Positions 175 to 45,916 of a stretch of 64,000 nucleotides of DNA are shown here, one piece after another. The DNA is from a bacterium. GTDB taxonomy: Bacteria > Patescibacteriota > Minisyncoccia > Phycocordibacterales > UBA9973. Both the position numbers and the translations under genes were made by a program. How positions within the stretch are numbered: the stretch's first letter is position 1; each line of letters begins with the position of its first letter. Under the pieces are notes generated by a model. The model was not told where the DNA came from, made no database searches, and worked only from the letters and a program-made list of their open reading frames with translations. Location of the stretch: positions 78,607 to 142,606 of the forward strand of contig JBAXXQ010000001.1 of assembly GCA_037127795.1 (NCBI GenBank). Direction: 5' to 3'.

Positions 175-423
175 ATGAACAATCTTTTTTCTTCTCTTTT
201 AGAGCAGATAAAACAAAATTATAAAAATAAGGCTACTACCTCAACCGAAATAACATCACTCGTAAGTGATGTTATCGGGTTTCAACTACAAGAGAAAGAT
301 ATAAAAATTTCTCAAGGAGTTTTGTATATTACTGTTTCTCCAACTATCAAGTCTACTGTTATGCAACACAAAAAAGAATTACTTGAAAAGCTTGCTTCGT
401 GGGGTGTTAGTGCTATTCGGTAA
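175..423 (+). CDS. DUF721/DciA-like small protein, typical neighbour of dnaN
   Basis: 82 aa; ISQGVLYITVSPTIKSTVMQHKKELLEKL resembles the DUF721 core; sits immediately after dnaN. Confidence 0.45.
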   Translation: MNNLFSSLLEQIKQNYKNKATTSTEITSLVSDVIGFQLQEKDIKISQGVLYITVSPTIKSTVMQHKKELLEKLASWGVSAIR

Positions 424-2908
424 AAGTAACTGCCTGTGTTGCCTGAAGTGTGTTGAGGAGATTATCTGTTGCTAGTGCTTTGATAGTATAAGATCCTGCA
501 CTATAGCCATATTCTTTTGGTGTAAAAGAGAATTTGAATGGTGATTGTAATGTGGTGAGATAATTATCATTGATATAAATATCTGCCGCTGTTACAGGAT
601 GAGGACTATCTTTTGTTTGTAAGAATATTGTTTGTGTACTTGTAGTAGGGAAGCTGTTGGGAAGGTTTTGGAATGTGACAGCAGTAGTATTTATTCCTGT
701 GTGTACAGTATCGTATCCTTTCGGAATATCTGCGTATGATGTTGTTTGGTAGTTTCCTTTATGATTTTCCCACCATGTTTGTACTGCTGGTTCCCAAAGT
801 CTAAATTCTGGATCACTATTTGGATTTGTTGGTGCTGGTCCTGTTGGATCATCTTTGTTTACCCAATACAAAATATCATGCACGCTAGTAATTATTTTTT
901 CTATACGAGATTCTGTTGGTGTTGCGTCTGTTGCGCGTTGTCCACTTGTTTTATCAATCCATACAGATTCATTACCAAGCCAACTTCCACGAAGTACTGG
1001 TTTTAATGAATTGTAATTATCTGGTGGAATAGGTTTTTCAAACGTAGTATGAGGAGTGTTTGGAAGTATACTTGTCATAAAGGTTTTCCATATAGGACCA
1101 GATACCGCAGAACCTCCAGATTTCATTTTTGAGTTGTCATTATTTCCTGACCAAACACCAACAGTAATATCTGGTGTATAGCCAATAATCCACGCATCAT
1201 GATCATCATTTGTAGTACCTGTTTTTACTGCAACACCAGGGATAGTAATTCCTGTACCAAATGTAGGGACACGAGGCGCTGGATCACTAAGTACATCATT
1301 GAGTGTTTTTATTGCATTGGGATCATACACTTCAGTATGTTTATCGGTGAAGTTTTCTACAGTGTTTCCTTCGCTATCTTTTATAGAAAGTATTCCTGTT
1401 GCTTCATTTCTTGTACCATTATTTGCAAATACACTATAGGCACTAGTCATATCAAGAAGGGTGACTTCGCCTCCTCCAAGCACAAGAGAAAGTCCATAGT
1501 TTGCTGGATCGGTAAGGGTGGTAATACCGAGACTTTGTGCTGTTTGTAATGCAGTATTGAGCCCTACAAGATATAGTAATTTTACCGCTGGAACGTTTCG
1601 TGATTCTGCGAGCGCAGAGCGGAGATTGATAGGTCCTTTGAATTTATTATCAAAGTCATCAGGGTTGTAACATTCTGTTTGCGCGTGTCCTGGAAGAGGT
1701 TTTTCATCTGCGGTACAGTTGGTAGAAAATTCTGTTGGCACATCAAAAAGTACTGTGTCCGGGGTATACCCCTTTTCAAATGCAGAAAGATAAATAAATG
1801 GTTTGAATGATGAACCTGGTTGTCGCTTTGCTGTTGCTATGTTGTATGCACCATCTATTGTTTTATCAAAATAATTTTTTGATCCAACCATAGCAAGAAT
1901 TTGTCCAGTCTTTGGATCTATTGCTACAAGACCACTATTTGAAGCGTTATATTTTGTTTTGTTTTGATCTGCATATTGCGCAATAGTCTGTTCTGCTTGT
2001 TGCTGCATAGTATAATCAAGAGTTGTTTGGATAGTGTAGCCACCGTTTTCCATAACATCAGCACCGTATTTTTGTTCTAGATAATCAAGAATATAAAATA
2101 CAAAATGTGGTGCTTTGATACTGTTTGCTGCAGCAATATTGAATACCACTTTTTCTTTTTTTGCTTGATCATATTGTGCTTGAGTAATATATTTTTGCTC
2201 AAGCATTTTTTTCAATGTAAGATTTTTTCTATCTTCAAGTGCTTGTCTATTTTTTCCAAAAGGGGAGTAGTATGTTGGTGCATTTGGAATAGAAGCAAGA
2301 TATGCAGACTCTGCTATATCGAGATCTTTTGAATGTTTACTAAAGAATGCCTCACTAGCTTCTTCTATACCATATATAGTCCCTCCGTATGGTGCATCGT
2401 TGAGATATATGGTAAGAATTTGATCTTTACTCATTTGTCTTTCGAGACGTACAGCAAGTACCCATTCTTTTAATTTACGAACAACGTTTTTATTAGAGTT
2501 CAAGAGAGTATTTTTTACTACTTGTTGAGTAAGTGTAGAGCCACCTTGAGAAAAGCTTCCGTGAATTACATTACTGAGCATTGCTCGGATAATAGAAGTT
2601 ATTTTGATACCACCATGAGTATAGAATTGTGCATCTTCTATAGAAATAACTGCGTGTTTTACATTATCTCCCATTTGATCAAAAGGGATCTGGGTGCGAC
2701 GAACACTTTGATGAATATCGTACAACATCACTGTACCGGTACGGTCGGTGATTTTTGAAGAGTTTGCTATTTTGCGAGCTTCAAATGTAGACATATCGGG
2801 GAGTTGTATAGTACTTGCCCAAATAAACACTGTTCCTATAAAAAATAACCCTACAGCACCTATAATAATAAGTATTTTCTTGATAGTTTTGAATGAAATT
2901 TTCTTCAT
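413..2908 (-). CDS. class A penicillin-binding protein (PBP1A; glycosyltransferase + transpeptidase)
   Basis: N-terminal TM anchor; GT51 motifs EDxxFxxHxG (IEDAQFYTHGGI), GGSTLTQQ, RKLKE; transpeptidase SSFKP (SxxK), SRN, KTGTT. Confidence 0.9.
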   Translation of the reverse strand: MKKISFKTIKKILIIIGAVGLFFIGTVFIWASTIQLPDMSTFEARKIANSSKITDRTGTVMLYDIHQSVRRTQIPFDQMGDNVKHAVISIEDAQFYTHGGIKITSIIRAMLSNVIHGSFSQGGSTLTQQVVKNTLLNSNKNVVRKLKEWVLAVRLERQMSKDQILTIYLNDAPYGGTIYGIEEASEAFFSKHSKDLDIAESAYLASIPNAPTYYSPFGKNRQALEDRKNLTLKKMLEQKYITQAQYDQAKKEKVVFNIAAANSIKAPHFVFYILDYLEQKYGADVMENGGYTIQTTLDYTMQQQAEQTIAQYADQNKTKYNASNSGLVAIDPKTGQILAMVGSKNYFDKTIDGAYNIATAKRQPGSSFKPFIYLSAFEKGYTPDTVLFDVPTEFSTNCTADEKPLPGHAQTECYNPDDFDNKFKGPINLRSALAESRNVPAVKLLYLVGLNTALQTAQSLGITTLTDPANYGLSLVLGGGEVTLLDMTSAYSVFANNGTRNEATGILSIKDSEGNTVENFTDKHTEVYDPNAIKTLNDVLSDPAPRVPTFGTGITIPGVAVKTGTTNDDHDAWIIGYTPDITVGVWSGNNDNSKMKSGGSAVSGPIWKTFMTSILPNTPHTTFEKPIPPDNYNSLKPVLRGSWLGNESVWIDKTSGQRATDATPTESRIEKIITSVHDILYWVNKDDPTGPAPTNPNSDPEFRLWEPAVQTWWENHKGNYQTTSYADIPKGYDTVHTGINTTAVTFQNLPNSFPTTSTQTIFLQTKDSPHPVTAADIYINDNYLTTLQSPFKFSFTPKEYGYSAGSYTIKALATDNLLNTLQATQAVTFTE

Positions 2909-2968: not shown

Positions 2969-4174
2969 ATGAATAACTCAAAAGATACCCAAGAGAAAAT
3001 CAGTACCCTAATAGAAAAAGGGGTTTCTGAAATTTTACCAAGTAAAAAATTCCTTGAATCACTTTTAATACAAGATAAAAAGCTTCGTATATATGCAGGA
3101 TTTGATCCGACAGGGCCAACACTTCACCTCGGACACACTATTCAGCTTCGCAAGTTGCGACATTTCCAAGATCTCGGTCATGAAATAATCTTTTTAATAG
3201 GAGATTTTACTGCACGCATTGGAGACCCTACAGACAAGACTGCCGCACGCAAACAACTCACTGAAAAAGAAATAAAAACAAATTTGAAATTGTACAAAAA
3301 ACAAGCAGAAAAATTTATTAGCTTTTCTGGAAGAAATGGTGCAAAAATAAAATTCAATAATGACTGGCTCGGTAAAATGAAGTTTGCAGATGTGCTCGAA
3401 CTTGCAAGTCATATGACTGTAGATCAAATGCTCAAGCGCGATATGTTTGCTCGTCGTATCGAAGAAGAAAAGCCAATTTATATTCACGAATTTATGTATC
3501 CACTCATGCAAGGATACGATAGTGTCTATATGCAAGTAGATGGAGAAGTAGGGGGGAATGACCAGCTTTTCAACATGCTCGCAGGACGCACACTTCTTAA
3601 ACAATTGAAAAATAAAGAGAAATTTGTTATCACTACAAAACTCCTCGAAGATGCGAATGGTAAAAAAATGGGAAAGACCGAAGGTAATATGGTGTCTCTC
3701 ATTGATACCCCAGAAGATATGTATGGCAAAATAATGTCTTGGACAGATGGGCTTATGGTTCCAGGTTTTGAGCTTTGTACTGATTTGAGTATGGGTGAAA
3801 TTGCTGATATTACAAAAGAATTAGAAAATGGTGCACATCCTCGCACTATCAAAATGTGTCTTGCATACGAAATTACAAAATCTATTCATGGGGAAAAAAG
3901 TGCACAGCAAGCACAAGATAATTTTGTAAGTATGTTTCAAAAAAAAGAAATTCCTACTGATGCGCAAAAGATAAATATACAAAACAAAACACTTGAAGAG
4001 ATTCTTATAGAAAACAACCTTCTTACTTCAAAAGGGGAAGTGCGACGTATGCTCGAAAGTGGTGCTATAAAAAATCTTTCAACAGACACAGTATTAAAAA
4101 ACGAAGATGCAAAAAGTATTCCAGGACAAGGAGTATATAAAATAGGAAAAGCAAAGTTTATAGAGTTTGTATAA
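2969..4174 (+). CDS. tyrS: tyrosine--tRNA ligase
   Basis: HLGH (HIGH variant) and KMGKT (KMSKS) class-I motifs; GFDPTGPTLHLGH; C-terminal S4-like tail. Confidence 0.9.
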   Translation: MNNSKDTQEKISTLIEKGVSEILPSKKFLESLLIQDKKLRIYAGFDPTGPTLHLGHTIQLRKLRHFQDLGHEIIFLIGDFTARIGDPTDKTAARKQLTEKEIKTNLKLYKKQAEKFISFSGRNGAKIKFNNDWLGKMKFADVLELASHMTVDQMLKRDMFARRIEEEKPIYIHEFMYPLMQGYDSVYMQVDGEVGGNDQLFNMLAGRTLLKQLKNKEKFVITTKLLEDANGKKMGKTEGNMVSLIDTPEDMYGKIMSWTDGLMVPGFELCTDLSMGEIADITKELENGAHPRTIKMCLAYEITKSIHGEKSAQQAQDNFVSMFQKKEIPTDAQKINIQNKTLEEILIENNLLTSKGEVRRMLESGAIKNLSTDTVLKNEDAKSIPGQGVYKIGKAKFIEFV

Positions 4175-4859: not shown

Positions 4860-5786
4860 ATGACGATAGTAATTACTGGAGGATCGGGGTTCGTAGGGAC
4901 AAAGCTTTCAAAAAAGCTTTTAGATAAAGGCTATACAGTGATTGTGGTAGATTTGCATGCACCAACATTTACCAATGAAAAACTATTTTTTATTCCACTT
5001 GATCTTACCAAGTCTATTATTCCTTTTGGTGTTCTCGAACATGCAGATGCAGTAGTCAATCTTTCAGGTGCTCCTATTTCTCAAAAATGGAACGAAGAAG
5101 TACAAAAGGTTATTTATGATAGTCGCATCGAAAGTACTAAACATGTAGTACAAAGCTTTGAAGCAACACATGCTCGCCCAGGAGTACTAGTAAATGCTTC
5201 TGCTATAGGATTTTATGGGGAAACAGGAGAAAGTATTTCTGATGAAAAAACACCTGCAGGAAAAGGGTTTTTGGCAAAAGTAGTTACTGATTGGGAAAAC
5301 GAAGCAAATAAAGCAAGTGCATTTGGGGTACGAGTAGTATTGGTACGTACTGCGCCAGTGCTTGGTTTAGGGGGGATGCTTGCGCTCTATACACAGACAG
5401 CACGGTTTGGATTTTTGCTCGGTCTACAAAAAGATTTTATGCTTTCATGGATCCATGTAGATGATCTTGTAGATGCATATATTTTTGCAATTGAAACCTC
5501 AACCGTACAGGGAGTAATAAATGCTGCTGCTCCAGAGACAACAAGTTATAAAAAATTGATGCTCGCACTTTCACACACTATCCACCGTCGTGCGTTTTTC
5601 TTTATTCCAAAAAAGCTCGCGCTCTATGTATTTGGTGTTGATGGGTATGAAGAGTTGACTGTAAACCAGCTCGCCAAGCCAAGTAGATTGCTTGATAAGG
5701 GGTTCGTATTTACTTATCCGACACTACAAGGTGCTCTCACACAAATATATCCAGTAGTACAAAAAAACCATGAAAAGAGTAGATAG
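4860..5786 (+). CDS. NAD-dependent epimerase/dehydratase family protein (YfcH/TIGR01777-like)
   Basis: N-terminal Rossmann motif ITGGSGFVGTKL; length and C-terminal region fit the YfcH (DUF1731) family; extended -10 tgGTATTAT 8 nt before ATG (leaderless). Confidence 0.6.
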   Translation: MTIVITGGSGFVGTKLSKKLLDKGYTVIVVDLHAPTFTNEKLFFIPLDLTKSIIPFGVLEHADAVVNLSGAPISQKWNEEVQKVIYDSRIESTKHVVQSFEATHARPGVLVNASAIGFYGETGESISDEKTPAGKGFLAKVVTDWENEANKASAFGVRVVLVRTAPVLGLGGMLALYTQTARFGFLLGLQKDFMLSWIHVDDLVDAYIFAIETSTVQGVINAAAPETTSYKKLMLALSHTIHRRAFFFIPKKLALYVFGVDGYEELTVNQLAKPSRLLDKGFVFTYPTLQGALTQIYPVVQKNHEKSR

Positions 5787-6645
5787 TGTAGTACAACCAA
5801 GTGCCGGATACGAACTTATCGATTGTGGTAATGGACGCAAGTTAGAACAATTTGGCGAACTTGTTCTCGATAGACCAGATCCTCAGGCACTTTGGCAAAA
5901 AACAGACAAGTCTCTTTGGGTGCGCGCTGATGGGCAATTCCTTTGGAAAGAAAGTGGTGAACGGTGGAAAATGCAGCAAGGCATCGCAGACTCTTGGCAT
6001 ATGGCGTATGCAGATATGGTTTTTTCTCTTTCAACAAAAGGATTCAAACATGTAGGGATTTTTCCAGAACATATTGCGCAATGGGAAGAATTGTACACAC
6101 TCGGCAAAAAATATGCGAATACCAAGCAACCATTAAAAATGCTTAATTTGTTTGGCTATACTGGCGCCGCAAGTGTCGCAGGATCTCTCGCTGGTATGCA
6201 GGTGACTCACGTAGACGCATCAAAAACAACTATACTCACAGTCCGAGAAAATATGGAGCTCTCAGGACTCAAACAAGATGCAATGCGTATTATTTGTGAA
6301 GATGCATTTCTCTATGTGAAGCGTTTGGTGAAAAGAGGGGAGCAGTTTGATGTTATTGTGATGGATCCACCAGCTTTTGGTCGTGGACCAAAAGGCGAAG
6401 TATGGAAAATAGAAGAATCTCTCACCGAGTTTCTCGCACTTCTTCCATCTATTGTTTCACCTAGTGCAAAACTTGTTATTTTAAATGGATACGCAGCAGG
6501 GTACAGTGCTCGCACATTTGGTGAACTTCTCGGCGAATCTCTCAAAGATAAAAAAGGTGAAATAATATATGGCGATATTGGTATGCAACAAAAAAATACC
6601 GATCGTGTGCTCACAACCGGTATTTATGCGAAATGGGTTAAGTAA
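5770..6645 (+). CDS. class I SAM-dependent (rRNA-type) methyltransferase, RlmI/YccW-like catalytic domain
   Basis: LNLFGYTGAASVAG (SAM-binding), DVIVMDPPAFGRG (DPPxF motif). Confidence 0.6.
   Translation: MKRVDSVVQPSAGYELIDCGNGRKLEQFGELVLDRPDPQALWQKTDKSLWVRADGQFLWKESGERWKMQQGIADSWHMAYADMVFSLSTKGFKHVGIFPEHIAQWEELYTLGKKYANTKQPLKMLNLFGYTGAASVAGSLAGMQVTHVDASKTTILTVRENMELSGLKQDAMRIICEDAFLYVKRLVKRGEQFDVIVMDPPAFGRGPKGEVWKIEESLTEFLALLPSIVSPSAKLVILNGYAAGYSARTFGELLGESLKDKKGEIIYGDIGMQQKNTDRVLTTGIYAKWVK
6586..6645 (+). repeat. direct repeat copy 1 (3' end of methyltransferase ORF), 57/60 identical to 8235-8294
   Basis: caacaaaaaaataccgatcgtgtgctcacaaccggtatttatGcgaaatgggtTaaGtaa. Confidence 0.9.
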
Positions 6646-6664
6646 ATTTTTTATATATAAAAAA

Positions 6665-6688
6665 AACCACGATACGTTCGTGGTTTTT
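6665..6688. terminator. bidirectional rho-independent terminator
   Basis: aaaaaaaccacgatacgttcgtggttttt between convergent genes. Confidence 0.6.
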
Positions 6689-6693
6689 AGTTT

Positions 6694-7326
6694 TTAACTA
6701 GCAATACCTAAATAGGGTACATGGTTACCGAAATGGTCAATACAAAAAGTATCAATAGTGTCATTTTTTGGTATTTCACGATATGCAGGTATCGGACAAA
6801 TTCCAATACTTGAATCATTAGTTTTTAAATACCTGGTAACACCAGCACTACTAGTTGATCTTCCTTCGTTTTGTAATGCGCGTACGAGAACCCCATCAAC
6901 ACCATATTCTGTTAGTAATTTTGGTAAATCAATAACAGTAGACCCATCATCGACAACTGATATAACAATAGGAATATTCAAATCCTTTGCTTTTTGTATT
7001 GCATTTTTTGCCATATCATTAGTAAATTTATTTAAACTTATTTCAACCCTAGTAAGACCAGATCTTACGGATGCTTTGGTAGCGCATAAAACAGAAACAC
7101 GCTTACCTAGATTAAATATTTTTTCTAATAATTCATCAAAACCTACAAACAATCCAGTTTCTCCGTTGCTTGTTAGATACACCTCATCACAAGAGGGGAG
7201 CTCTTTCAAAACAGTAGCTATTACTTTTTCTGAATCTCCTTCGTTGTGTTTTGGTGTTCTACAAAAACTACAACCAAGTGGGCATGGTGCTGGCAGTTGT
7301 ACTGCCAAAATCTTTTGCTTTTTCAT
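6694..7326 (-). CDS. small radical SAM domain protein (unknown specificity)
   Basis: CPLGCSFC = CxxxCxxC 4Fe-4S/SAM cluster motif near N-terminus; 210 aa. Confidence 0.6.
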   Translation of the reverse strand: MKKQKILAVQLPAPCPLGCSFCRTPKHNEGDSEKVIATVLKELPSCDEVYLTSNGETGLFVGFDELLEKIFNLGKRVSVLCATKASVRSGLTRVEISLNKFTNDMAKNAIQKAKDLNIPIVISVVDDGSTVIDLPKLLTEYGVDGVLVRALQNEGRSTSSAGVTRYLKTNDSSIGICPIPAYREIPKNDTIDTFCIDHFGNHVPYLGIAS

Positions 7327-7374
7327 TTTTAATTATTTTTAATAGTACACAATATATTTATACTATATACTATA

Positions 7375-7399
7375 CTGTATTGTTATATTTGCAATACAG
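7375..7399. promoter_or_regulatory. inverted repeat CTGTATTG-N9-CAATACAG in divergent promoter region (candidate operator)
   Basis: Perfect 8-bp inverted repeat between the divergent radical-SAM and TrmB-like genes; TTGACA-N17/18-TATACT promoter follows at 7411-7440. Confidence 0.4.
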
Positions 7400-7466
7400 T
7401 TTTATATAATTTGACAAAAAGATATTATTTTATATATACTAAATACTGTTATTAACTATTAACAAC

Positions 7467-8228
7467 ATGATAGAAGAAACACTACAAAACATAGGGTTAA
7501 CTGATAAAGAAATTCAAGTTTTTTTAACAGTTTTTCAAAATAAAAGAATTTTACCAGCACGAATAAGTACACTGTCTGGTATTAATCGTTCTACGGTATA
7601 TGTAATTGGGGAAAAACTAGAAAAAGAAGGACTTATTACTATCGATTACGGAAATAGTAGTAGATATTTTGTTGCACCTGATATACAAGATTTGGAAAAA
7701 CAACTAAAACAAGAAGAAGAAAAACTTCAAAAAAAAGAGCAGTCTTATAAAAATTTACTCAAAGAGCTTAAAAATTTACCTGTTACTGGAAAATATTCAG
7801 TACCAAAAATTCGTTTTATAGCAGAACATCAATTAAAAGATTTTCTTATTAAAGAATCAGATAAATGGGCAAAAAGCGCTCTTTTATATGATAAAACATG
7901 GTGGGGGTATCAAGACCCTACACTACTCGAGCAATATGAATCTTGGCCTGATTATTTTTGGCCAAAATATAAGAACGACATCTTGATGAAAATTTTTACA
8001 AATAAAAAGATTATCGAAAAAAAGATTAGTAAAAAGAATTATTCAGGCAAGAGAATGATTAAATTCCTTGATCCTAAAAAACATGATTTTTCTGCAACAC
8101 AGGTAGTTGTTGGAGAATATATTCTTATGATAGTAACAAGAGAACATCCTCATTATTTAATAGAGATACACGATGCTGTTATGGCTCACAATCTTAGAGA
8201 ATCTTTTAAATTAATGTGGGGAGAATAG
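7467..8228 (+). CDS. TrmB-family (winged HTH) transcriptional regulator
   Basis: N-terminal LTDKEIQVFLTVFQNKRILPARISTLSGINRSTVYVIGEKLEKEGLI matches the TrmB-type HTH; 253 aa. Confidence 0.55.
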   Translation: MIEETLQNIGLTDKEIQVFLTVFQNKRILPARISTLSGINRSTVYVIGEKLEKEGLITIDYGNSSRYFVAPDIQDLEKQLKQEEEKLQKKEQSYKNLLKELKNLPVTGKYSVPKIRFIAEHQLKDFLIKESDKWAKSALLYDKTWWGYQDPTLLEQYESWPDYFWPKYKNDILMKIFTNKKIIEKKISKKNYSGKRMIKFLDPKKHDFSATQVVVGEYILMIVTREHPHYLIEIHDAVMAHNLRESFKLMWGE

Positions 8229-8234
8229 TGTGTA

Positions 8235-8294
8235 CAACAAAAAAATACCGATCGTGTGCTCACAACCGGTATTTATACGAAATGGGTAAAATAA
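8235..8294 (+). repeat. direct repeat copy 2 (relic of methyltransferase 3' end), 57/60 identical to 6586-6645
   Basis: caacaaaaaaataccgatcgtgtgctcacaaccggtatttatAcgaaatgggtAaaAtaa immediately after the TrmB stop. Confidence 0.9.
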
Positions 8295-8585
8295 TTAAAC
8301 TTCTTCAATTTGAAATTCAGAAAAGTAAGCACTCGGGTTTAATTCTAAAGCTTCCAAAACTGCAAAGATTAGAATTTTTACCGTAATTGCATAACTAAAA
8401 TGTATTTCTACAGATAGTTCTTTTTGATCAGAATGATCTATCTTTTTTAGTTCAGGAAGAATACGCATTCCTACTGTTTGTAAAAAAGAAGCTTGAATAC
8501 TATCAAATAGTAACCTTTCCTTATTTTTTGGAATAAGTTTTTCAAAACATCGAGTTGTTACTCGTACATTGTCAGTAAATCTCAT
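8295..8585 (-). CDS. hypothetical protein
   Basis: 96-aa ORF, no recognisable motif. Confidence 0.3.
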   Translation of the reverse strand: MRFTDNVRVTTRCFEKLIPKNKERLLFDSIQASFLQTVGMRILPELKKIDHSDQKELSVEIHFSYAITVKILIFAVLEALELNPSAYFSEFQIEEV

Positions 8586-8685
8586 ATATTATTTTTTTAT
8601 TAAAATACTCTTTATTAAAAATAAGTCAAGTTTTTTATACATGCTATAATTCATTCTGTTATAAGAATTAGAAAGTAATACAGAT

Positions 8686-9300
8686 ATGTCATTTTTAACA
8701 CAACTCAATTGGCGGTATGCCACAAAAAAGTTTGATACAGAAAAAAAGATATCAGACGAGCAATTACAAAAAATACAACAAGCTATCAAGATGGCGCCAA
8801 GCTCATTCGGATTGCAACCATTGCATGTATTGGTAATAACCAACTCAGAACTTCGTGAGCAATTGAAAGGTGCTTCATGGGGGCAGGGACAAGTAACTGA
8901 TGCGTCACATCTTTTTGTATTTTGCGCTCGTACAGACTTGCTTGCTCGTACCAATACTTTTTTTGAAGCAATATCTGGTGGCTCAGCAGAAGCTCGTGCA
9001 GGATTGAAAGGCTACGAAGAAATGATTACCAATACAGTAAATGCACTTTCTCCAGAAAAAGCACAACAATGGACTGCTCGCCAAGCATATATTGCGCTCG
9101 GTTTTGCTTTGGCTGCATGTGCAGAGCTCGAAATAGATTCTTGCCCAATGGAAGGATTTGATCCAGCACAATATCATCACATTCTCAATCTTCCAGAAGA
9201 TATGCAAGCAGTGCTTGTGCTCCCTGTAGGATTTCGTCACGCAGACGATGTTATTAGACCTAAATTTAGATTCAATGACATCTTCGAAACTCGCGCCTAA
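8686..9300 (+). CDS. nitroreductase family NAD(P)H oxidoreductase
   Basis: LNWRYATKKFD N-terminus and overall pattern typical of NfsB/NfnB-like nitroreductases. Confidence 0.75.
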   Translation: MSFLTQLNWRYATKKFDTEKKISDEQLQKIQQAIKMAPSSFGLQPLHVLVITNSELREQLKGASWGQGQVTDASHLFVFCARTDLLARTNTFFEAISGGSAEARAGLKGYEEMITNTVNALSPEKAQQWTARQAYIALGFALAACAELEIDSCPMEGFDPAQYHHILNLPEDMQAVLVLPVGFRHADDVIRPKFRFNDIFETRA

Positions 9301-9700
9301 GTATAGTGTTCCTGGAGACCTTGTTGTAAAAAAGGGGATTAATGGACTCGGCCTTTTTACCAAAGTATCTATCAAAAAAGGTGATTGTATTATTGAATAT
9401 GTCGGTGAAATAATCACTGAAGATGAAGCAAATATTCGTGGTGGCAAATATCTTTTTCAAACAGGAAAAAATCGCCATATAGATGGTACTGCTCGGACAA
9501 ATACTGCCCGCTATCTCAATCACTCATGTCGCCCCAACGCAGAGAGTGATATCAAAAAAGGACGCATATTTATCTTTGCAAAAAGAAATATCAAACCTGG
9601 CGAAGAGCTTTGTTATGATTATGGTAAAGAATACTTCAATGAATACATCAAACCAAAAGGGTGTCGGTGTGAGAAATGCGTAGTAAAACAAGAAGTGTAG
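9275..9700 (+). CDS. SET-domain protein (putative protein lysine methyltransferase)
   Basis: NHSCRPN and ELCYDYG SET signature motifs; C-terminal CRCEKC post-SET-like Cys cluster; ATG at 9275 overlaps the nitroreductase 3' end by 26 nt. Confidence 0.75.
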   Translation: MTSSKLAPKYSVPGDLVVKKGINGLGLFTKVSIKKGDCIIEYVGEIITEDEANIRGGKYLFQTGKNRHIDGTARTNTARYLNHSCRPNAESDIKKGRIFIFAKRNIKPGEELCYDYGKEYFNEYIKPKGCRCEKCVVKQEV

Positions 9701-9777
9701 ACGACTATGTTTTACTTAGTCCAGCAAGGTTTCATAATAAAAAACCGAGTCGGGCAGTGCTAAGTCAATAAAAGGTA

Positions 9778-10215
9778 ATGCAAAAGATTCAATTTAAAAA
9801 AACATATTTTTTAATTATTTCAGATAGGCTTGTTACAAGACTTGGTCGCTTAATATCTCTCGGTGATAATGCTATGGCTATCACATTCTGGCCGTTACTT
9901 ATAGTGCGACCCTCTACAAAAGACAATGCAGAGCTTATTCGCCATGAGACAATTCATATCAGACAACAAATAGAACTTCTTGTTATTGGTGCACACCTTT
10001 TATATCTTGTTGAATATTGTTATGCCAGATATATTAAAAAATTTGATAAACGCCAAGCGTATTACTATACAGCAATAGAACAAGAAGCTCACAGGAATGC
10101 AATGAAAGAGGATTATTTGAAAACAAGAAAACCATATGCGGTTTTGTATTACATACGAAACAAAAAATGGCTTGCTCGTGGTCCACAGGGTGAACTTATA
10201 GAAAAAGAGTACTAA
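9778..10215 (+). CDS. hypothetical protein with HExxH (HETIH) zincin-like motif
   Basis: HETIH within a 145-aa partly hydrophobic protein; family not assignable by eye. Confidence 0.35.
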   Translation: MQKIQFKKTYFLIISDRLVTRLGRLISLGDNAMAITFWPLLIVRPSTKDNAELIRHETIHIRQQIELLVIGAHLLYLVEYCYARYIKKFDKRQAYYYTAIEQEAHRNAMKEDYLKTRKPYAVLYYIRNKKWLARGPQGELIEKEY

Positions 10216-10220
10216 AATAA

Positions 10221-10250
10221 AAAGCCCCAGAATTTTCTGAGGCTTTTTAA
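10221..10250. terminator. bidirectional terminator
   Basis: aaaagccccagaattttctgaggcttttt between convergent genes. Confidence 0.6.
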
Positions 10251-10556: not shown

Positions 10557-11039
10557 CTACAATTCCCAGTTTTTTTGTTTTATAGCTCCCAATGAGGCTA
10601 TTCCGAGCGCGATAGCATCTATTTCGTCATCAAGTTTTTTGTCTGTATTTATGTGTAGTGTGAGCTGTACCATCTTTTGTACTTGCTCTTTATTGGCGTT
10701 TCCTATGCCCGTGAGGGCTAGTTTGACCTCTTGAGGGGAGAGTTCTATGAGTGGGATTTTGTGTAGCCCAGCGAGGAGTACAAATACACCGCGCGCTTGT
10801 GCAACATTGATTACTGTCTTTTTATTTACCGAAAAAAACAACGTTTCCAATGCAATATATGCAGGCTTTTCTTGCATGAGAATTTTTTCAGCCTCTGTAT
10901 AGATATATGCGAGGCGTTTTTCTATGGAATCTTTTTTGTCTGTGGTGATACACGCAGAATGTAATATCGCACCCTCTGTATCGAGAAGGGCAATACCACA
11001 TCTATCGTACCCAGGATCTATAGCGAGGATTTTTATCAT
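10557..11039 (-). CDS. ruvC: crossover junction endodeoxyribonuclease RuvC
   Basis: MIKILAIDPGYDRCGIALLD N-terminal catalytic Asp region; 160 aa. Confidence 0.9.
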   Translation of the reverse strand: MIKILAIDPGYDRCGIALLDTEGAILHSACITTDKKDSIEKRLAYIYTEAEKILMQEKPAYIALETLFFSVNKKTVINVAQARGVFVLLAGLHKIPLIELSPQEVKLALTGIGNANKEQVQKMVQLTLHINTDKKLDDEIDAIALGIASLGAIKQKNWEL

Positions 11040-12034
11040 GCAATATAATGTCTGCCTTTTTCTGTAATAACACGACCGCGTTGGGTGCGTTCGAGGAGGC
11101 CGAGCTGTATAAGGTATGGCTCGATGACGTCTTCTATAGTCCCTTCATCTTCGCCTGTTGCTGCGGCAATGTTTTTTACTCCCACAGGGCCACCACCAAA
11201 TTTATCTTGTATGGTGTGTAGTATTGCAATATCATTTTTTGATAAACCGAGCGCATCAAGTCCGAGGAGATCAAACGCTTCCATAACAGATGCAGTATCA
11301 ATATTTTTTTGTTGCATTTGTGCATAGTCTCGCACACGACGGAGAAGGTAGTTTGCTATACGAGGAGTTTTGCGACTGCGGCTTGCTATATGATCTGTCT
11401 CTTCTTGGGGGATAGGGATAGAAAGGATTTCTGCAGAGCGAGTGAGGATCTTTTTTATTTCTTCATCGGTATAAAATTCCAAACGAAATGTCCCTCCAGA
11501 GAATCGTGAACGCAATGGAGAAGATACCATACCAAAACGAGTCGTTGCAGCGAGTAGTGTAAACGGGGGAAGCTCAAGTTGGATTGCGCGAGCAGAAGGA
11601 CCTTTACCAATCATGATATCCATCTTGCCTGTTTCCATTACAGGGTACAAAATTTCTTCAATAGTTTTGTTGAGTCGATGAATTTCATCGATAAATAAAA
11701 TATCACCAGGTTTGAGGTTGGTAAGTATTGCAGCGAGATCACCAACACGCTCTATAGAAGGGCCTGAAGTAATTTTTATTTGTGCACCGACTTCGCGAGC
11801 GATCACATGGGCGAGTGTTGTCTTACCGAGACCTGGTGGTCCATAAAAAAGTATGTGTTCAGGGGCATGTCCGCGAGATTTTGCGGCTCCTATGAGGATA
11901 GAAAGGTTCTTTTTTATCTGGCTTTGGCCGATATATTCGTCAAAAGAATTTGGACGCAACACATTGTCGCTGAATTGGTCATCGAGGCTGGCAGATATAG
12001 GTGTTTTTGGTGTGTTGGTGGGGGTACTTGACAT
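11036..12034 (-). CDS. ruvB: Holliday junction branch-migration ATPase RuvB
   Basis: Walker A GPPGLGKTTLAHVIA, sensor and winged-helix regions; 4-nt overlap with ruvC. Confidence 0.95.
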   Translation of the reverse strand: MSSTPTNTPKTPISASLDDQFSDNVLRPNSFDEYIGQSQIKKNLSILIGAAKSRGHAPEHILFYGPPGLGKTTLAHVIAREVGAQIKITSGPSIERVGDLAAILTNLKPGDILFIDEIHRLNKTIEEILYPVMETGKMDIMIGKGPSARAIQLELPPFTLLAATTRFGMVSSPLRSRFSGGTFRLEFYTDEEIKKILTRSAEILSIPIPQEETDHIASRSRKTPRIANYLLRRVRDYAQMQQKNIDTASVMEAFDLLGLDALGLSKNDIAILHTIQDKFGGGPVGVKNIAAATGEDEGTIEDVIEPYLIQLGLLERTQRGRVITEKGRHYIA

Positions 12035-12295: not shown

Positions 12296-12330
12296 TAAAA
12301 ACACCCAGTAGTTATATTGGGTGTTTTTAT
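12296..12330. terminator. bidirectional hairpin (A-run/stem/T-run)
   Basis: aaaataaaaacacccagtagttatattgggtgtttttatttt. Confidence 0.55.
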
Positions 12331-14324
12331 TTTATGCAGTATACTCATATATAGTGTATATACTTTTTTCTAATCATAAAAAAACTTTTTTTGCACTCGC
12401 ATTTGTATTGTGTTTCGGTGCATCTATTTCATACGCAGACAGAGTCGCGCCATATAGTGCAGGAGAAACACTCGATCCAGACTGTGCGCCAAATAGTGGG
12501 GTGAATTGCAGTGTGCATATCACAACCGGGGGAGGAAGTCAGACATTGCAACAAGTACTTACTGCAGGAAGTACGCTGACACAAGATATTACTATTGATG
12601 CGACAGGGCACAGTCTCACTATTAATACAGATAATCTAAACCTAAATGCACTTAATGGTAATACTATAATTCAAGGGGGTGGCGGAACAGAGTTTGATTT
12701 GTTAAATAATGGCAGTATTACTCTTGCTGCTGGTGCTGGTGATATATTATTTGATAATCCGGGTTCAAATTATTTTAAGCTTAAATATAATGGGTCTAAT
12801 GAATTTGTTTCAACCAATGGTACGAATATAACCGATAGTACATATGGAAATGCGTTATTTCTTGCTAATGATGGCTCAGCAAGTCTTACTTCAACAAACG
12901 GTAGTGATATATCTTTAAATGCTGATCACGATATTATATTAACCGCACCCAATGATGCTATTTCTATAGCATCACCGCAGGTAGATGTTATTAGTAGTAA
13001 TGGGGGGCAAGGTCTTCATATGGGGTTGTTTGGTTCAACAAAAATAACGGCAATTAATGGAGAGGATTTGCAATTGGTCAATGATAATAATAATAACTTT
13101 ATACACCTGAGTGGTAATGGTGCTACTTCTATTACTTCGCAAAATTCTCAAGATATAAATATTACTGGTGATGAGCGAGTAATTATTACTGCAAACGATA
13201 ATTTGAATAATAATTATGGTATTGAACTTCATGCAGGAACCGCACAAGCATATTTTAATAAAGATGCTGATATAAATTTTCAAACAGGAGATAGAAGTTT
13301 CTTTGATATGGGTGGTGGGGGAAATATTGATTTTGTAAACGGAAATCATTCAAACGAATTCACTCTTGATCAAGATGGTGGAATCACAGCAATAACTACA
13401 AACGGGTACCCTTTTAATGTTACTGCAAATAATGGTGATATATATCTACAAAGCACTACACATAATAATGGTTTATTTATTCAAAATGACGGATCTTCAT
13501 ATATAACAGCAAGTTTTGAGCTTGGTATTTCAAATACGACATCAAATGCTCGAATATATATGGAAAATAATGGCAACATGCAATTATTTGCTACAAATAG
13601 TGCCAATATGGATTTTGATGTACGTAGTGGAAAGTTTAGTTTTACTGCAGCCACCGGTAATAATACTCCTGTGGTTATAGGTACAAACTCTGGTAATACC
13701 TGTACTTTCTCTACTACCACCGGTACATTCGCATGTGCATCTGATGTACGCCTCAAGCATAATATAAACTCGCTCGATAGTACTGCATTATCAAAAATAC
13801 TTTCATTGAATCCTGTAACGTTTAATTACAACTGGCAATCACCAACAGATGCATCAGTACCAGGATTTATTGCGCAAGAATTTGAGACAGTATTTCCTGA
13901 TATGGTAAGTATTGATCCGACTACGGGGTATAAATCTCTCTCATACACTCCACTTATTCCATACACCATAAAAGCAATACAAGATATACATACTCAAACC
14001 ACAAACCTCGCAAGCCTTACAGGAGACACAGGGAATACACTCAAGGGTGCATTGATAGCTTGGTTTGCCGATATACATAACGGTATTACAAAATTATTTG
14101 CAGATGAGGTTGATACCAATAAATTGTGTGTTGGTGCAGTGTGTGTGACTAGTGATCAATTTTTACAGATGGTACAACAAATACAAACGCAAAATACTGT
14201 ACAAAATAATATTCCAAGTAGTACTCCTGTTGTAGATCCTGTAGTTCCTAGTACTACACAAACACCACCTAGTATAGATACTCCAACTACGCCACCTACA
14301 GATGCTCCAATAGTGACTCAATAA
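12321..14324 (+). CDS. secreted beta-helix/tail-fibre-like protein with C-terminal Peptidase_S74 intramolecular chaperone domain
   Basis: Signal peptide KKTFFALAFVLCFGASISYA (true start probably GTG ~12354); Gly/Asn/Thr-rich repeats; C-terminus SDVRLKHNINSLDSTALSKILSLNPVTFNYNW...GFIAQEFETVFPDMV...GYKSLSYTPLIPYTIKAIQDI matches the S74 endosialidase/tail-fibre chaperone domain; Pro/Thr-rich tail. Confidence 0.6.
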   Translation: MFLFYAVYSYIVYILFSNHKKTFFALAFVLCFGASISYADRVAPYSAGETLDPDCAPNSGVNCSVHITTGGGSQTLQQVLTAGSTLTQDITIDATGHSLTINTDNLNLNALNGNTIIQGGGGTEFDLLNNGSITLAAGAGDILFDNPGSNYFKLKYNGSNEFVSTNGTNITDSTYGNALFLANDGSASLTSTNGSDISLNADHDIILTAPNDAISIASPQVDVISSNGGQGLHMGLFGSTKITAINGEDLQLVNDNNNNFIHLSGNGATSITSQNSQDINITGDERVIITANDNLNNNYGIELHAGTAQAYFNKDADINFQTGDRSFFDMGGGGNIDFVNGNHSNEFTLDQDGGITAITTNGYPFNVTANNGDIYLQSTTHNNGLFIQNDGSSYITASFELGISNTTSNARIYMENNGNMQLFATNSANMDFDVRSGKFSFTAATGNNTPVVIGTNSGNTCTFSTTTGTFACASDVRLKHNINSLDSTALSKILSLNPVTFNYNWQSPTDASVPGFIAQEFETVFPDMVSIDPTTGYKSLSYTPLIPYTIKAIQDIHTQTTNLASLTGDTGNTLKGALIAWFADIHNGITKLFADEVDTNKLCVGAVCVTSDQFLQMVQQIQTQNTVQNNIPSSTPVVDPVVPSTTQTPPSIDTPTTPPTDAPIVTQ

Positions 14325-14332
14325 AAAAACCT

Positions 14333-14360
14333 TTCAATTAAGAAAGGTTTTTTTATTTAT
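14333..14360. terminator. bidirectional terminator
   Basis: aaaaaaacctttcaattaagaaaggtttttttattt between convergent genes. Confidence 0.7.
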
Positions 14361-16072
14361 TCCATATCGACGACACTTTGTACTTCTTCAAAATCTGTAA
14401 TACCTTGGAGGATTTTTACGAGGCCATCTTCGCGCATATCGAGAGTGCCTTGTTGGTCAGCAATTTTTTTGATATCGCGCTCAGTAGGGTTTTGCATAAT
14501 GATATGTTCAATATTTTCATCCATTTGTATTGCTTCAAAAACACCAAGCCGTCCTTTGTAGCCTGTGTGGTTGCAGTGAGTACAGCCTTTTGCTGCAACA
14601 AGTGTTTGTACGTCTCGTTGTACACCAAATTGTGCCATATCTTTTTTATTTGCTATAGCATTGTCCCAAATTTTTTGTATCAAAAGTGTTTCTTTTTCTG
14701 TGACAGGGCGATCATAGCGACATTCAGTACAAATTTTTCGTACAAGACGCTGCGCAATAGAAAGCGAAAGAGCGGATACGAGAATCTTTGGATTCACATC
14801 AAGATCGATAAGGCGGGGGATAACACCAGACGCATTGTTGGTGTGCAGTGTTGAAAATACCAAGTGTCCAGTAAGTGCACTTTCTACTGCGATTTTTGCT
14901 GTTTCACTGTCTCGGATTTCTCCCACCATGATTGTATCTGGATCTTGTCGAAGTGCCGATCGAAGCCCTTCGAGGAAGGTATAGCCAAGTTTGTGATCTA
15001 CTTGTGTCTGTGTGATACCAGGAAGGTGGTATTCGATAGGGTCTTCGATGGTAATAATTTTTATTTCAGGAGAAAATATTTTTTGCAAAAAGGCATACAA
15101 AGTGGTGGTCTTTCCAGATCCTGTCGGCCCAGTAAGGAGTATCATGCCGTGAGGTTTTTTGATCTCTTTCATAAAAAGCTCATACATGGGGGCAGAGATT
15201 CCCATTTGGTCGAGTTGTACACGAATAGATTTTGGATTCAAAATACGAAGCACAATACTTTCGCCATATGCGCCTGGGATAAGTGATGTACGAAAACTAA
15301 TTTCTATTTTTTCTTCGTCTTTTGTTCCACCAAGGAATGCACTAAATCGTCCGTCTTGGGCATTGGCTACTTGAGTGAGCTTGAGTCCTGAAATAAGTTT
15401 TACGCGAGTGTTGAGCTGGTGGTATGTTGCCGTATCAAACATAGTGATGACATGGAGTACGCCGTCGAGACGAAAACGCAATTCAGCGTTATTTTCCATA
15501 GGTTCTATGTGTACATCAGATGCACCAAGTCCAATACCGCATCCAAGAATAATTTCGAGGATACGAGAGAGGTGGTGCATTGAAGTGTCGTTTTTTGCGA
15601 GATCAATACGAGTAGTCGCATCATCAAGAGTTTTTACAGAGACTGCGAGCTCTTCGAGAACCTCAGGAGAAATATCGAGTCCACCACTACGAGAAGTAGT
15701 TGCAAAAGAAAGATCTTCGTAGTGAGTCCATACTTTCTTTATACTTTTTTCACTTGCCATATTAAATACAACTTCGAAACCATCTGCCTCAAGTTTTTCT
15801 TTTGCGCTTCGTGCGCCAGTTGCAATAGGGGATCGTACTGCGAGAAAGAGCTTCTTACCAATAAGTTTGTATGGGCCAACATCAAAATGTTTTGCTTCTT
15901 CTTCGGTGAGGAGGCGAATTGCGTCATTACTAATAGTTTGACTTTCAAGATTTACATAAGGAATTTGGTACTTTTCTTCGGCGAGTGTCTTAACAAGAGA
16001 TTCTTCTTCTTGCTCTCGAAGAGTTCTAAGTCGTTTGTTTTGTTGTGTTTCATCAAAGGTTACCATAATCAA
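14357..16072 (-). CDS. pilB: type IV pilus assembly / type II secretion ATPase (PilB/GspE family)
   Basis: Walker A LLTGPTGSGKTTTL, Asp box, His box; tetracysteine CTECRYD...CTHCNHTGYKGR; N-terminal GspII_E-N-like domain. Confidence 0.85.
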   Translation of the reverse strand: MIMVTFDETQQNKRLRTLREQEEESLVKTLAEEKYQIPYVNLESQTISNDAIRLLTEEEAKHFDVGPYKLIGKKLFLAVRSPIATGARSAKEKLEADGFEVVFNMASEKSIKKVWTHYEDLSFATTSRSGGLDISPEVLEELAVSVKTLDDATTRIDLAKNDTSMHHLSRILEIILGCGIGLGASDVHIEPMENNAELRFRLDGVLHVITMFDTATYHQLNTRVKLISGLKLTQVANAQDGRFSAFLGGTKDEEKIEISFRTSLIPGAYGESIVLRILNPKSIRVQLDQMGISAPMYELFMKEIKKPHGMILLTGPTGSGKTTTLYAFLQKIFSPEIKIITIEDPIEYHLPGITQTQVDHKLGYTFLEGLRSALRQDPDTIMVGEIRDSETAKIAVESALTGHLVFSTLHTNNASGVIPRLIDLDVNPKILVSALSLSIAQRLVRKICTECRYDRPVTEKETLLIQKIWDNAIANKKDMAQFGVQRDVQTLVAAKGCTHCNHTGYKGRLGVFEAIQMDENIEHIIMQNPTERDIKKIADQQGTLDMREDGLVKILQGITDFEEVQSVVDME

Positions 16073-45831: not shown

Positions 45832-45916
45832 AATATATTAAAAAACAATAAAAAATAGATTTGTCAAATAGGTGCTGTATATTCTTTTAAATATTCATTC
45901 ATTTAAAAAATATACT

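Follow-up and report, generated by a model that had tools for sequence, protein, structure and literature searches.

Genes and features at the SET locus

The window considered here is a 64-kb stretch of DNA from an ultra-small bacterium of the Patescibacteria (CPR), and it carries an intact and strongly conserved gene for a SET-domain protein. The gene and its surroundings are as follows:

5770..6645, + strand: RlmI/RlmK-like class-I SAM methyltransferase, ancestral immediate upstream neighbor of SET (PF10672, E 5e-10)
6662..6688, unstranded: bidirectional terminator-like hairpin from the hairpin scan, now between the ancestral upstream operon and SET
6694..8585, unstranded: block of inserted variable genes, none of them found in any of 80 related loci
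6694-7326, - strand: inserted radical-SAM-like gene (Radical_SAM E 2.7e-4, below cut-off)
7467-8228, + strand: inserted TrmB-like regulator (TrmB E 3.4e-10)
8295-8585, - strand: inserted 96-aa open reading frame
8642..8650, + strand: TGcTATAAT, an extended -10-like element and candidate promoter, 36 nt ahead of the nitroreductase start codon
8686..9300, + strand: NfsB-like nitroreductase gene, lineage-specific upstream neighbor of SET (PF00881, E 1.3e-27)
9275..9300, + strand: overlap in which the end of the nitroreductase gene and the beginning of SET are both encoded
9275..9700, + strand: gene for a SET-domain protein-lysine methyltransferase of 141 aa, the coordinates including the stop codon (Pfam SET, homologues, public gene calls)
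9778..10215, + strand: gene for a 145-aa HExxH protein whose family is small, uncharacterised and restricted to CPR (55 clusters of homologues, every one named hypothetical)
10218..10249, unstranded: hairpin with a 14-bp stem and flanking A/T runs (hairpin scan), a likely bidirectional terminator of the nitroreductase-SET-HExxH unit
10557..12034, - strand: ruvC-ruvB, conserved downstream anchor (Pfam RuvC E 2e-33, RuvB_N E 4e-72)

The SET frame is open from 9248 to 9700 (+). Its start was assigned to the ATG at 9275 because the homologues start at MTSSK, matching this codon, the identical protein is called at 141 aa on two public contigs, and the longer start at ATG 9248, which was rejected, reads ATA in the closest relative (locus L001).

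The upstream gene belongs to the nitroreductase family, with 97.4 bits against PF00881 (gathering score 23.5), and scores 114 bits with the NfsB-like model NF008275, below the equivalog cut-off of 227. As the earlier note had it, the SET start overlaps the nitroreductase stop by exactly 26 nt, the SET frame being +1 relative to that of the nitroreductase. Judged from the DNA, translational coupling of the two genes is plausible, because the junction is free of terminators and L001 has the identical overlap sequence (26/26 bases). The length of the overlap speaks against coupling, since it exceeds the classic 1- or 4-nt geometry and the well-documented cases of termination-reinitiation. There is no Shine-Dalgarno sequence before SET, which is uninformative because nearly all genes in the window are without one.

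The HExxH protein that the same note placed downstream is also there, 77 nt beyond SET. Its HETIH motif lies at residues 56-60 (nt 9943-9957) and is invariant in the family, in which H56, E57, H60, Q63, E66, E101 and E103 never vary. Pfam, NCBIfam and PADLOC give it no identity above threshold, and its match to eCIS_core/DUF4157 (PF13699) reaches 15 bits where 22 are required (E 0.029), over the HExxH segment only. The candidate promoter ahead of the three genes is inferred by eye from the -10-like element; the consensus promoter scan did not report it, as it has no -35 hexamer. On the + strand from 8686 to 10215 the single terminator-like site is a weak stem of 5 bp within the nitroreductase coding sequence.

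Motifs and predicted fold of the SET protein

SET is the sole Pfam domain above cut-off in the protein. The Pfam profile (PF00856) matches with 91.3 bits and E 6.1e-26 against a gathering score of 22.4, spanning all 105 of its positions over residues 24-117, so that the whole domain is present and the match is far beyond chance; the PR domain of PRDM proteins (PF21549) reaches 16.9 bits where 27 are needed. All four signature motifs of SET lysine methyltransferases (GxG, YxG, NHSxxPN, and ELxF/YDY with the catalytic Tyr) are found, followed by a cysteine cluster, with invariance judged across 66 homologues:

9341..9355, + strand: motif I NGLGL, residues 23-27, GxG SAM-binding turn; G24 and G26 invariant, aligned with GLGL of KMT2C
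9395..9409, + strand: motif II EYVGE, residues 41-45; I40, E41, Y42 and G44 invariant, aligned with IEYIG of KMT2C
9518..9538, + strand: motif III NHSCRPN, residues 82-88, SAM-binding/pseudoknot segment; N82, H83 and C85 invariant, aligned with NHSCAPN of KMT2C
9605..9625, + strand: motif IV ELCYDYG, residues 111-117; E111, Y114 and Y116 invariant, aligned with EELCYDY of KMT2C
9662..9679, + strand: post-SET cysteine cluster CRCEKC, spacing CxCxxC; C130, C132 and C135 invariant

The motifs NHSCRPN and ELCYDYG and the cysteine cluster after them, all singled out in the earlier note, thus hold up, and the catalytic Tyr and the NHSC segment are retained in the alignment with KMT2C. From SET enzymology (DIM-5 F281/Y283, MLL1 Y3942) we take Y114 to be the Phe/Tyr-switch position and Y116 the catalytic Tyr. 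C85 would be the first ligand of a predicted post-SET zinc site, and together with C130, C132 and C135 it would supply the four ligands expected there, all of them invariant. MLL-type enzymes have a post-SET spacing of CxCx4C, and the CxCxxC of the window protein counts against the explanation that we favor below.

The AlphaFold2 model has a mean pLDDT of 84.7 and a pTM of 0.75, and Foldseek relates this predicted structure to 375 PDB chains at E<=1e-3, consistent with the SET beta-fold. The top matches of the model are the SET domains of MLL1, MLL3, EZH2, G9a and NSD1 (TM normalized to the query 0.60-0.72), and the best solved relatives by sequence are those of KMT2C, KMT2A, EZH2 and NSD enzymes, at E 6e-18 and weaker. 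The closest solved group is KMT2 (MLL/Trithorax; KMT2C 5f59, MLL1 2w5y), with about 34-39% identity and a TM of about 0.6-0.7, sharing NHSCxPN, EELxYDY with Tyr at the switch, and the post-SET cysteine cluster. However, only the catalytic core is similar: domains flanking SET are missing from the window protein, and its motif II-III region is shorter by about 8-12 residues. At 141 aa with SET only, it is not a member of the multidomain KMT2/Trithorax family built around the WDR5-RbBP5-ASH2L core complex, and to our knowledge these three partners are absent from bacteria. The Chlorella virus protein vSET (PBCV-1 A612L, PDB 1n3j) is likewise a minimal SET protein (119 aa, 30% identical over 108 residues), but in the alignment it lacks both the NHSC cysteine and the post-SET cysteine cluster.

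A large and widespread bacterial family

The gene belongs to a very large bacterial family that was annotated before now. The name "SET domain-containing protein-lysine N-methyltransferase" is already in use at NCBI for the family and is carried by some members, including P0054, P0111 and the plasmid matches. Homologue search with the SET protein returned 1,727 clusters when sequences were grouped at 90% identity, and 11,650 at the 50% level (E<=1e-3); homologues occur in at least 567 species genomes, mostly of Paceibacteria/Nomurabacteria. In a published survey, COG2940 SET proteins were found in 39% of 105 bacterial species (PMC9018016). The statement of the earlier note that bacterial SET proteins are rare is contradicted by these numbers. 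Relatives 53-62% identical are found in Caulobacterales/Hyphomonadaceae, on high-GC contigs, and in Bdellovibrionales and Chitinophagales.

The stand-alone COG2940 SET proteins in MAGs of Candidatus Nomurabacteria/Paceibacterota fall into the same length class (135-165 aa), are 60-97% identical, and have motifs and a CxCxxC tail identical in kind. There is no substantive difference between them and the window protein, whose gene is distinct only in its lineage-specific order, with an inserted nitroreductase upstream that overlaps its start. A literature search for SET proteins of CPR/Patescibacteria turned up no paper addressing them. As for a mobile origin, no phage matches were found, so that a phage origin is without support, and a plasmid origin was rejected since plasmids matched only through distantly related SET genes of the Burkholderia type, 34-47% identical.

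Conserved context and evolutionary origin of the SET gene

A block consisting of PBP1, TyrRS, YfcH, the RlmI-like methyltransferase, SET, RuvC-RuvB and PilB is common to 24 of the 80 related loci. In 23 of these 24 syntenic loci the distance from the stop of the RlmI-like gene to the start of SET is about -18 to +97 nt; the copy in the window has NCBIfam matches to RlmK/L and RlmI, all below cut-off. RuvC is found downstream of SET in 22 of the 80 loci and RuvB in 20, and the interval between SET and RuvC varies from 372 to 3,221 nt. The SET gene is under very strong purifying selection, with a dN/dS against L001 of 0.039 compared with 0.23 for the adjacent nitroreductase, and its GC content (0.378) is close to that of the window (0.367).

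The earlier note also raised a horizontal, eukaryote-like origin. In its favor are the solved homologues, which at the top are all eukaryotic KMT2/EZH/NSD enzymes, and an early view in the literature (Aravind and Iyer, 2003), as relayed by a citation in PMC3980110. On the other hand, KMT2C is about 35-40% identical, whereas bacterial clusters, more than 1,700 of them, are 53-97% identical, and published phylogenies keep bacterial and eukaryotic SET proteins apart (PMC3980110). In our neighbor-joining tree, which carries no support values, the bacterial sequences cluster tightly together, a long branch separates them from KMT2C, and the syntenic clade of the window is monophyletic. Because the gene has host-like GC, a dN/dS of 0.04 and a place in a core-genome block kept in 24 loci, a recent transfer from a eukaryote to a bacterium is unsupported, and we regard it as extremely unlikely.

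Upstream, the order in the window departs from the ancestral one. The inserted genes would have cut SET off from the upstream operon of TyrRS, YfcH and RlmI-like methyltransferase, and SET now probably shares a transcript with the nitroreductase, itself inserted, and with the HExxH gene, its translation presumably starting from the ATG 26 nt inside the nitroreductase reading frame. With PADLOC the inserted genes gave nothing except a weak Csa3-like helix-turn-helix match in the TrmB-like protein, and a reading of them as a defence island was dropped.

Whether the nitroreductase, SET and HExxH products act together as a dedicated operon is a separate matter. The common strand, the overlap, the 77-nt gap, the shared terminator at 10218-10249 with none internal, and the preservation of the overlap in L001 would all suit such a module. 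Yet among the 80 related loci the nitroreductase is directly next to SET once, in L001; in L076 a nitroreductase homologue stands about 1.8 kb upstream of SET. The HExxH gene is not a direct neighbor of SET in any of the 80, and a related MAG has its HExxH homologue and SET on separate contigs (L083 and L020). Moreover, SET directly follows the RlmI-like methyltransferase in the 23 syntenic loci, and the interval down to RuvC varies as given above. A functional operon was therefore rejected as highly unlikely, and the link of SET to both neighbors is a local accident of gene order.

Proposed function and competing explanations

Taken together, the evidence is best explained if the protein is a vertically inherited, cytoplasmic, SAM-dependent lysine methyltransferase producing mono- or dimethylated lysine on an endogenous protein, an account that we consider probable. 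It would be a stand-alone minimal SET and post-SET enzyme, in which SAM is bound through the GxG, NHSC and ELxYDY segments, the zinc cluster of C85 with C130, C132 and C135 closes the lysine channel, and the methyl group is moved to the epsilon-amino group of a lysine in the protein substrate. The Tyr at the Phe/Tyr switch (Y114) would favor mono- or di-methylation and not trimethylation. As a putative housekeeping component of a Paceibacteria-type CPR bacterium, it would most probably act in the cytoplasm on a protein of the cell itself.

Prokaryotic SET proteins with endogenous substrates are documented (PMC3980110). Go1-SET of Methanosarcina mazei and cpnSET of Chlamydia pneumoniae, small prokaryotic SET proteins that we liken to the window protein by their described function, methylate the endogenous chromatin proteins MC1-alpha and Hc1/Hc2 (PMC3980110). 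Nucleoid-associated proteins of the kind of MC1-alpha (Go1-SET) and Hc1 (cpnSET) would thus be the precedent for a substrate; MC1 and Hc1 are lineage-specific. None of the conserved neighbors of SET among the 80 loci indicates a substrate.

CPR bacteria live attached to hosts, and the protein might instead be an effector exported by an episymbiotic cell that methylates host proteins, histones among them if the host is eukaryotic or archaeal. Most of the bacterial SET proteins studied by experiment are secreted and act as effectors on host histones (PMC3980110), which favors export and counts against an endogenous role. Parallels are seen in Chlamydia NUE, Legionella RomA/LegAS4, Burkholderia BtSET and Bacillus anthracis BaSET, which share the SET catalytic core; the closest matches in sequence and fold are eukaryotic histone methyltransferases, and the gene for the type IV pilus ATPase PilB is nearby. 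There is also a weak NCBIfam match to LegAS4/AnkI (E 7e-8), but this model (NF043024) gives 31.6 bits against an equivalog cut-off of 550 and covers the SET part only. Unlike those effectors, the window protein is a SET core of 141 aa in which no ankyrin or other extra domain, no secretion or nuclear-targeting segment and no NLS-type basic extension was seen, and at its N-terminus (MTSSKLAPKYSVPGD...) there is no hydrophobic stretch of the signal type. The housekeeping syntenic block, the low dN/dS and the close relatives in free-living Caulobacterales and Chitinophagales also argue against export, and we consider an effector role improbable.

A different proposal pairs SET with the vasohibin-like cysteine protease CPR-C4, the two acting on a common substrate. 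A CPR-C4 homologue (PDB 7ob6, E 7e-57) lies within 4.5 kb of SET in 16 of the 80 SET-centered loci, about 10 of these 16 being divergently transcribed, the two starts roughly 70-100 nt apart; the remaining neighbors in those loci are not conserved. Against this, SET adjoins CPR-C4 in 4 of 80 CPR-C4-centered metagenome loci, so that the pairing appears lineage-limited and was downgraded; no CPR-C4 gene lies within the 64-kb window, and the entire syntenic clade of the window is without the pairing. A shared substrate is thus very unlikely. It is conceivable, if still unlikely, that SET has a housekeeping role, modifying a single conserved endogenous protein of the nucleoid or of the translation apparatus, and is paired with CPR-C4 in some CPR lineages, where both would act on that target; the housekeeping role is suggested by the very strong purifying selection, the syntenic core position and the existence of copies 53-62% identical to SET in free-living Alphaproteobacteria, in Bdellovibrionales and in Chitinophagales. 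If true, it would amount to a bacterial lysine-methylation system not described before.

Implications for SET proteins in reduced genomes

As one further uncharacterised member of a large bacterial SET family, the gene in the window is of limited practical importance. It is nevertheless clear evidence against the notion that a bacterial SET protein signals host-histone targeting or a eukaryotic origin. Because a core SET gene has been retained in ultra-small bacteria with reduced genomes, an important endogenous substrate is suggested, and its identity would bear on the role of SET proteins in bacteria without a eukaryotic host. With 141 aa and thousands of natural variants, the enzyme may offer a convenient entry point for work on the substrate.

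Identification of the SET-domain gene

The product of the gene at 9275-9700 carries the motifs of a SET-domain protein, as the earlier note had read: NHSCRPN (9518-9538), ELCYDYG (9605-9625) and a following cysteine cluster, CRCEKC (9662-9679). The Pfam SET model matches over its full profile (E 6.1e-26; 91.3 bits vs a gathering score of 22.4), and the assignment is secure. Every detail that the earlier note took directly from the sequence is confirmed, the overlap with the nitroreductase gene and the HExxH protein downstream included. The plus-strand reading frame extends from 9248 to 9700, and the start is placed at ATG 9275, giving 141 aa, because homologues begin at an equivalent MTSSK or MSxxK and because gene calls on two public contigs with an identical protein also give 141 aa. 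The longer start at ATG 9248, which is ATA in the closest relative (L001), was rejected on these grounds. The same SET locus has also been assembled from SRR12676973 and ERZ4224321 (L081 and L082).

Across 66 aligned homologues G24, G26, I40, E41, Y42, G44, Y59, F61, R79, Y80, N82, H83, C85, E111, Y114, Y116, C130, C132 and C135 are invariant, and among them are residues of the SAM-binding turn and of the pseudoknot segment at NHSC, the two tyrosines of ELxYDY and four cysteines. These four, the NHSC cysteine and three near the C-terminus, are what the predicted post-SET zinc site requires; their post-SET spacing is CxCxxC, whereas MLL-type enzymes have CxCx4C. A tyrosine at the Phe/Tyr-switch position of SET enzymes goes with mono- or di-methylation, the activity predicted here from Y114. 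With a pI of 9.3 the protein is basic, and only about 15 residues precede the SET core.

Among solved structures, those closest in sequence are SET domains from KMT2C, KMT2D, KMT2A, EZH2 and NSD1-3, which align motif by motif from E 6e-18. An AlphaFold2 model built on the homologue alignment is confident (pLDDT 84.7, pTM 0.75), and Foldseek matched it to 375 PDB chains at E<=1e-3, headed by the SET domains of MLL1, MLL3, EZH2, G9a and NSD1 (TM 0.60-0.72). vSET, a minimal SET enzyme from a virus, shares 30% identity and lacks the cysteine cluster. Plasmid matches are distant Burkholderia-type SET genes (34-47% identity), and searches of phages and with PADLOC gave no matches.

Distribution and origin

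The earlier note took bacterial SET proteins to be rare, a premise that is outdated in view of the counts, of a published survey and of a review. A word-indexed search matched the SET protein to 1,727 clusters at 90% identity; for the best 120, identity to it is 60-97% and length 134-166 aa. Members with a named source come from Candidatus Nomurabacteria, Paceibacterota and the Parcubacteria group, and the name "SET domain-containing protein-lysine N-methyltransferase" is already attached to some. A one-genome-per-species scan gave at least 567 SET loci, most in Patescibacteria (CPR). In an exhaustive HMMER search the number of representative clusters was 11,650 at E<=1e-3, falling to 1,582 at E<=1e-10 and to 38 at E<=1e-30. 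The top representative match, P0176 (264 aa), is a duplicated version of this small bacterial protein, with two tandem SET-like stretches and 55% identity to the query. Relatives outside CPR, at 53-62% identity, include Hyphomonadaceae, Caulobacterales, Terricaulis, Bdellovibrionales and Chitinophagales among the matches listed; their contigs keep their own composition (GC 0.61-0.71 in the alphaproteobacterial ones) and are therefore not mis-binned CPR DNA. COG2940 SET proteins occur in 39% of 105 bacterial species surveyed (PMC9018016), and a review had concluded that SET genes are native to bacteria, free-living ones included (PMC3980110). The family is thus bacterial, very large and already annotated, and the gene is an ordinary member of it.

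The gene shows no sign of the eukaryotic origin for which a phylogenetic check had been proposed. In a neighbour-joining tree (121 columns, without support values) all bacterial sequences form a tight group separated from KMT2C by a long branch; the sequences from loci syntenic with the window make up a monophyletic clade, and those of Caulobacterales type cluster with one another among deep CPR branches. This separation, the agreement in GC content (0.378 vs 0.367 for the window) and a dN/dS against L001 of 0.039 at dS of about 1.25 (0.23 for the adjacent nitroreductase) argue against a recent transfer from a eukaryote.

Gene order and neighbours

The window shares a gene block with 24 of the 80 related loci compared: PBP1, tyrosyl-tRNA synthetase, YfcH, the RlmI/RlmK-like methyltransferase, SET, a variable slot, ruvC-ruvB and PilB. 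The list gives these genes in the window together with the other features that lie between them there:

413-2908 (-), PBP1-type penicillin-binding protein
2969-4174, tyrosyl-tRNA synthetase
4860-5786, YfcH-type epimerase-family protein
5770-6645, RlmI/RlmK-like class-I methyltransferase
6662-6688, terminator-like hairpin after the RlmI-like gene
6694-8585, extra insert: radical-SAM-like gene (CPLGCSFC), TrmB-like HTH regulator and 96-aa ORF
8243-8274, terminator-like hairpin after the TrmB-like gene
8642-8650, TGcTATAAT element read from the sequence, upstream of the nitroreductase gene
8686-9300, nitroreductase (PF00881, E 1.3e-27; NfsB-like, below the NCBIfam equivalog cut-off)
9275-9700 (+), SET
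9778-10215 (+), HExxH protein, in the variable slot
10218-10249, terminator-like hairpin after the HExxH gene
10557-12034 (-), ruvC-ruvB
14357-16072 (-), PilB-type ATPase

In 23 of the 24 block-sharing loci SET begins about -18 to +97 nt after the methyltransferase stop. In L001 a nitroreductase sits between the two genes, the only one of the 80 loci where it adjoins SET (L076 has a homologue about 1.8 kb upstream), and the three genes of the insert, which occupies the methyltransferase-nitroreductase interval and is delimited by the hairpins at 6662-6688 and 8243-8274, are found in none. On the other side the SET-ruvC interval ranges from 372 to 3,221 nt among relatives and in the window is occupied by the HExxH gene and an acidic ORF of 73 aa. 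With both intervals variable, SET is a stable core gene between two slots of gene turnover.

The downstream protein, the HExxH protein of the earlier note, has HETIH at residues 56-60. It is 145 aa long, and its family is small and restricted to CPR, with 55 clusters that are each named hypothetical. HETIHxxQxxE and EQEA are invariant motifs, and the HExxH is followed by a hydrophobic stretch. No Pfam or NCBIfam model scores above threshold, and likeness to eCIS_core/DUF4157 is sub-threshold and limited to the HExxH segment (E 0.029); judged by its motifs, this may be a small uncharacterised metallopeptidase-like family. NCBI has the protein, at 100% identity, as 'WCQ32_00510 [bacterium]' (P0121). 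In a related MAG the HExxH homologue (L083) and SET (L020) lie on different contigs. Neither the nitroreductase nor the HExxH gene is informative on SET function, and there is no sign of functional linkage of SET to its neighbours.

A protein of about 210 aa, homologous to the vasohibin-like cysteine protease CPR-C4 (E 7e-57 to PDB 7ob6), lies near SET in 16 of the 80 SET-centred loci and is divergent from it in about ten, with 70-100 nt between starts. Loci with the pair are:

Opposite-strand CPR-C4, upstream of SET by about 70-100 nt: L034, L035, L039, L041, L059, L069, L073, L079
Further SET loci with CPR-C4: L026, L028, L045, L060, L038, L080, L025, L066
CPR-C4-centred loci with SET: L089, L128, L130, L139

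In the reciprocal scan of CPR-C4-centred metagenome contigs SET adjoins in only 4 of 80 loci, and no CPR-C4 gene was found in the window. The authors of its solved structures (7ob6 and 7pjo) found no functional clue in gene context (PMC9108980). The pairing is real but lineage-limited, with no bearing on the window locus.

Two further features were seen elsewhere in the window. Between ruvB and pilB (12321-14324, +) lies a gene for a 667-aa Gly/Asn/Thr-rich repetitive protein with a C-terminal Peptidase_S74 domain (E 1.4e-13), an intramolecular chaperone of endosialidase/tail-fibre type; the product is a predicted phage-tail-fibre-like autoprocessing fibre protein, absent from this position in the 80 related loci. 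A cyclodipeptide synthase gene (45872-46558, +; Pfam CDPS, E 2.9e-24) stands at the edge of the stretch from 46 to 52 kb; after the gene come unannotated ORFs, a gene of the histidine-phosphatase family and msrB-msrA. GC in this stretch (0.28-0.33) is lower than anywhere else in the window, its GC skew is high, and it may be an acquired island.

Expression

No terminator-like hairpin was found between the nitroreductase, SET and HExxH genes. From the hairpin layout and the TGcTATAAT element, it appears that SET was separated from its ancestral operon by the insertions and is now driven by the promoter of the nitroreductase gene. SET, in the +1 frame, and the nitroreductase gene overlap by 26 nt, which the earlier note had taken to imply translational coupling. 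Coupling is plausible, but the overlap exceeds the 1 or 4 nt of the classic cases. The overlap is base-for-base identical in L001, while 17% of SET nucleotides differ between the two genomes; this fits a dual-coding constraint. No Shine-Dalgarno sequence precedes 9275; this is uninformative since genes in the window generally lack one (almost none in about 20 upstream regions listed). TATAAT-like elements lie about 5-15 nt from the ATG of several genes, e.g., 2969, 4860 and 413(-). These features suggest that translation in this organism starts on leaderless mRNAs or independently of an SD sequence.

Function

The protein is very probably an active SET methyltransferase, and its substrate is rather likely to be endogenous; small prokaryotic SET proteins have such substrates in MC1-alpha for Go1-SET and Hc1/Hc2 for cpnSET (PMC3980110). 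Export as an effector acting in a host would suit the host-attached life of CPR bacteria, but it is disfavoured by the housekeeping synteny and strong purifying selection of the gene, by its relatives in free-living bacteria and by a protein without extra domains or signal segment, which also fails the LegAS4 equivalog model (31.6 vs 550 bits). The best-supported reading, which we consider likely, is that the protein would be an active, cytoplasmic, SAM-dependent protein-lysine methyltransferase acting on an endogenous substrate. The residual interest of the locus lies in that endogenous substrate, for a strongly conserved SET enzyme kept in reduced CPR genomes.
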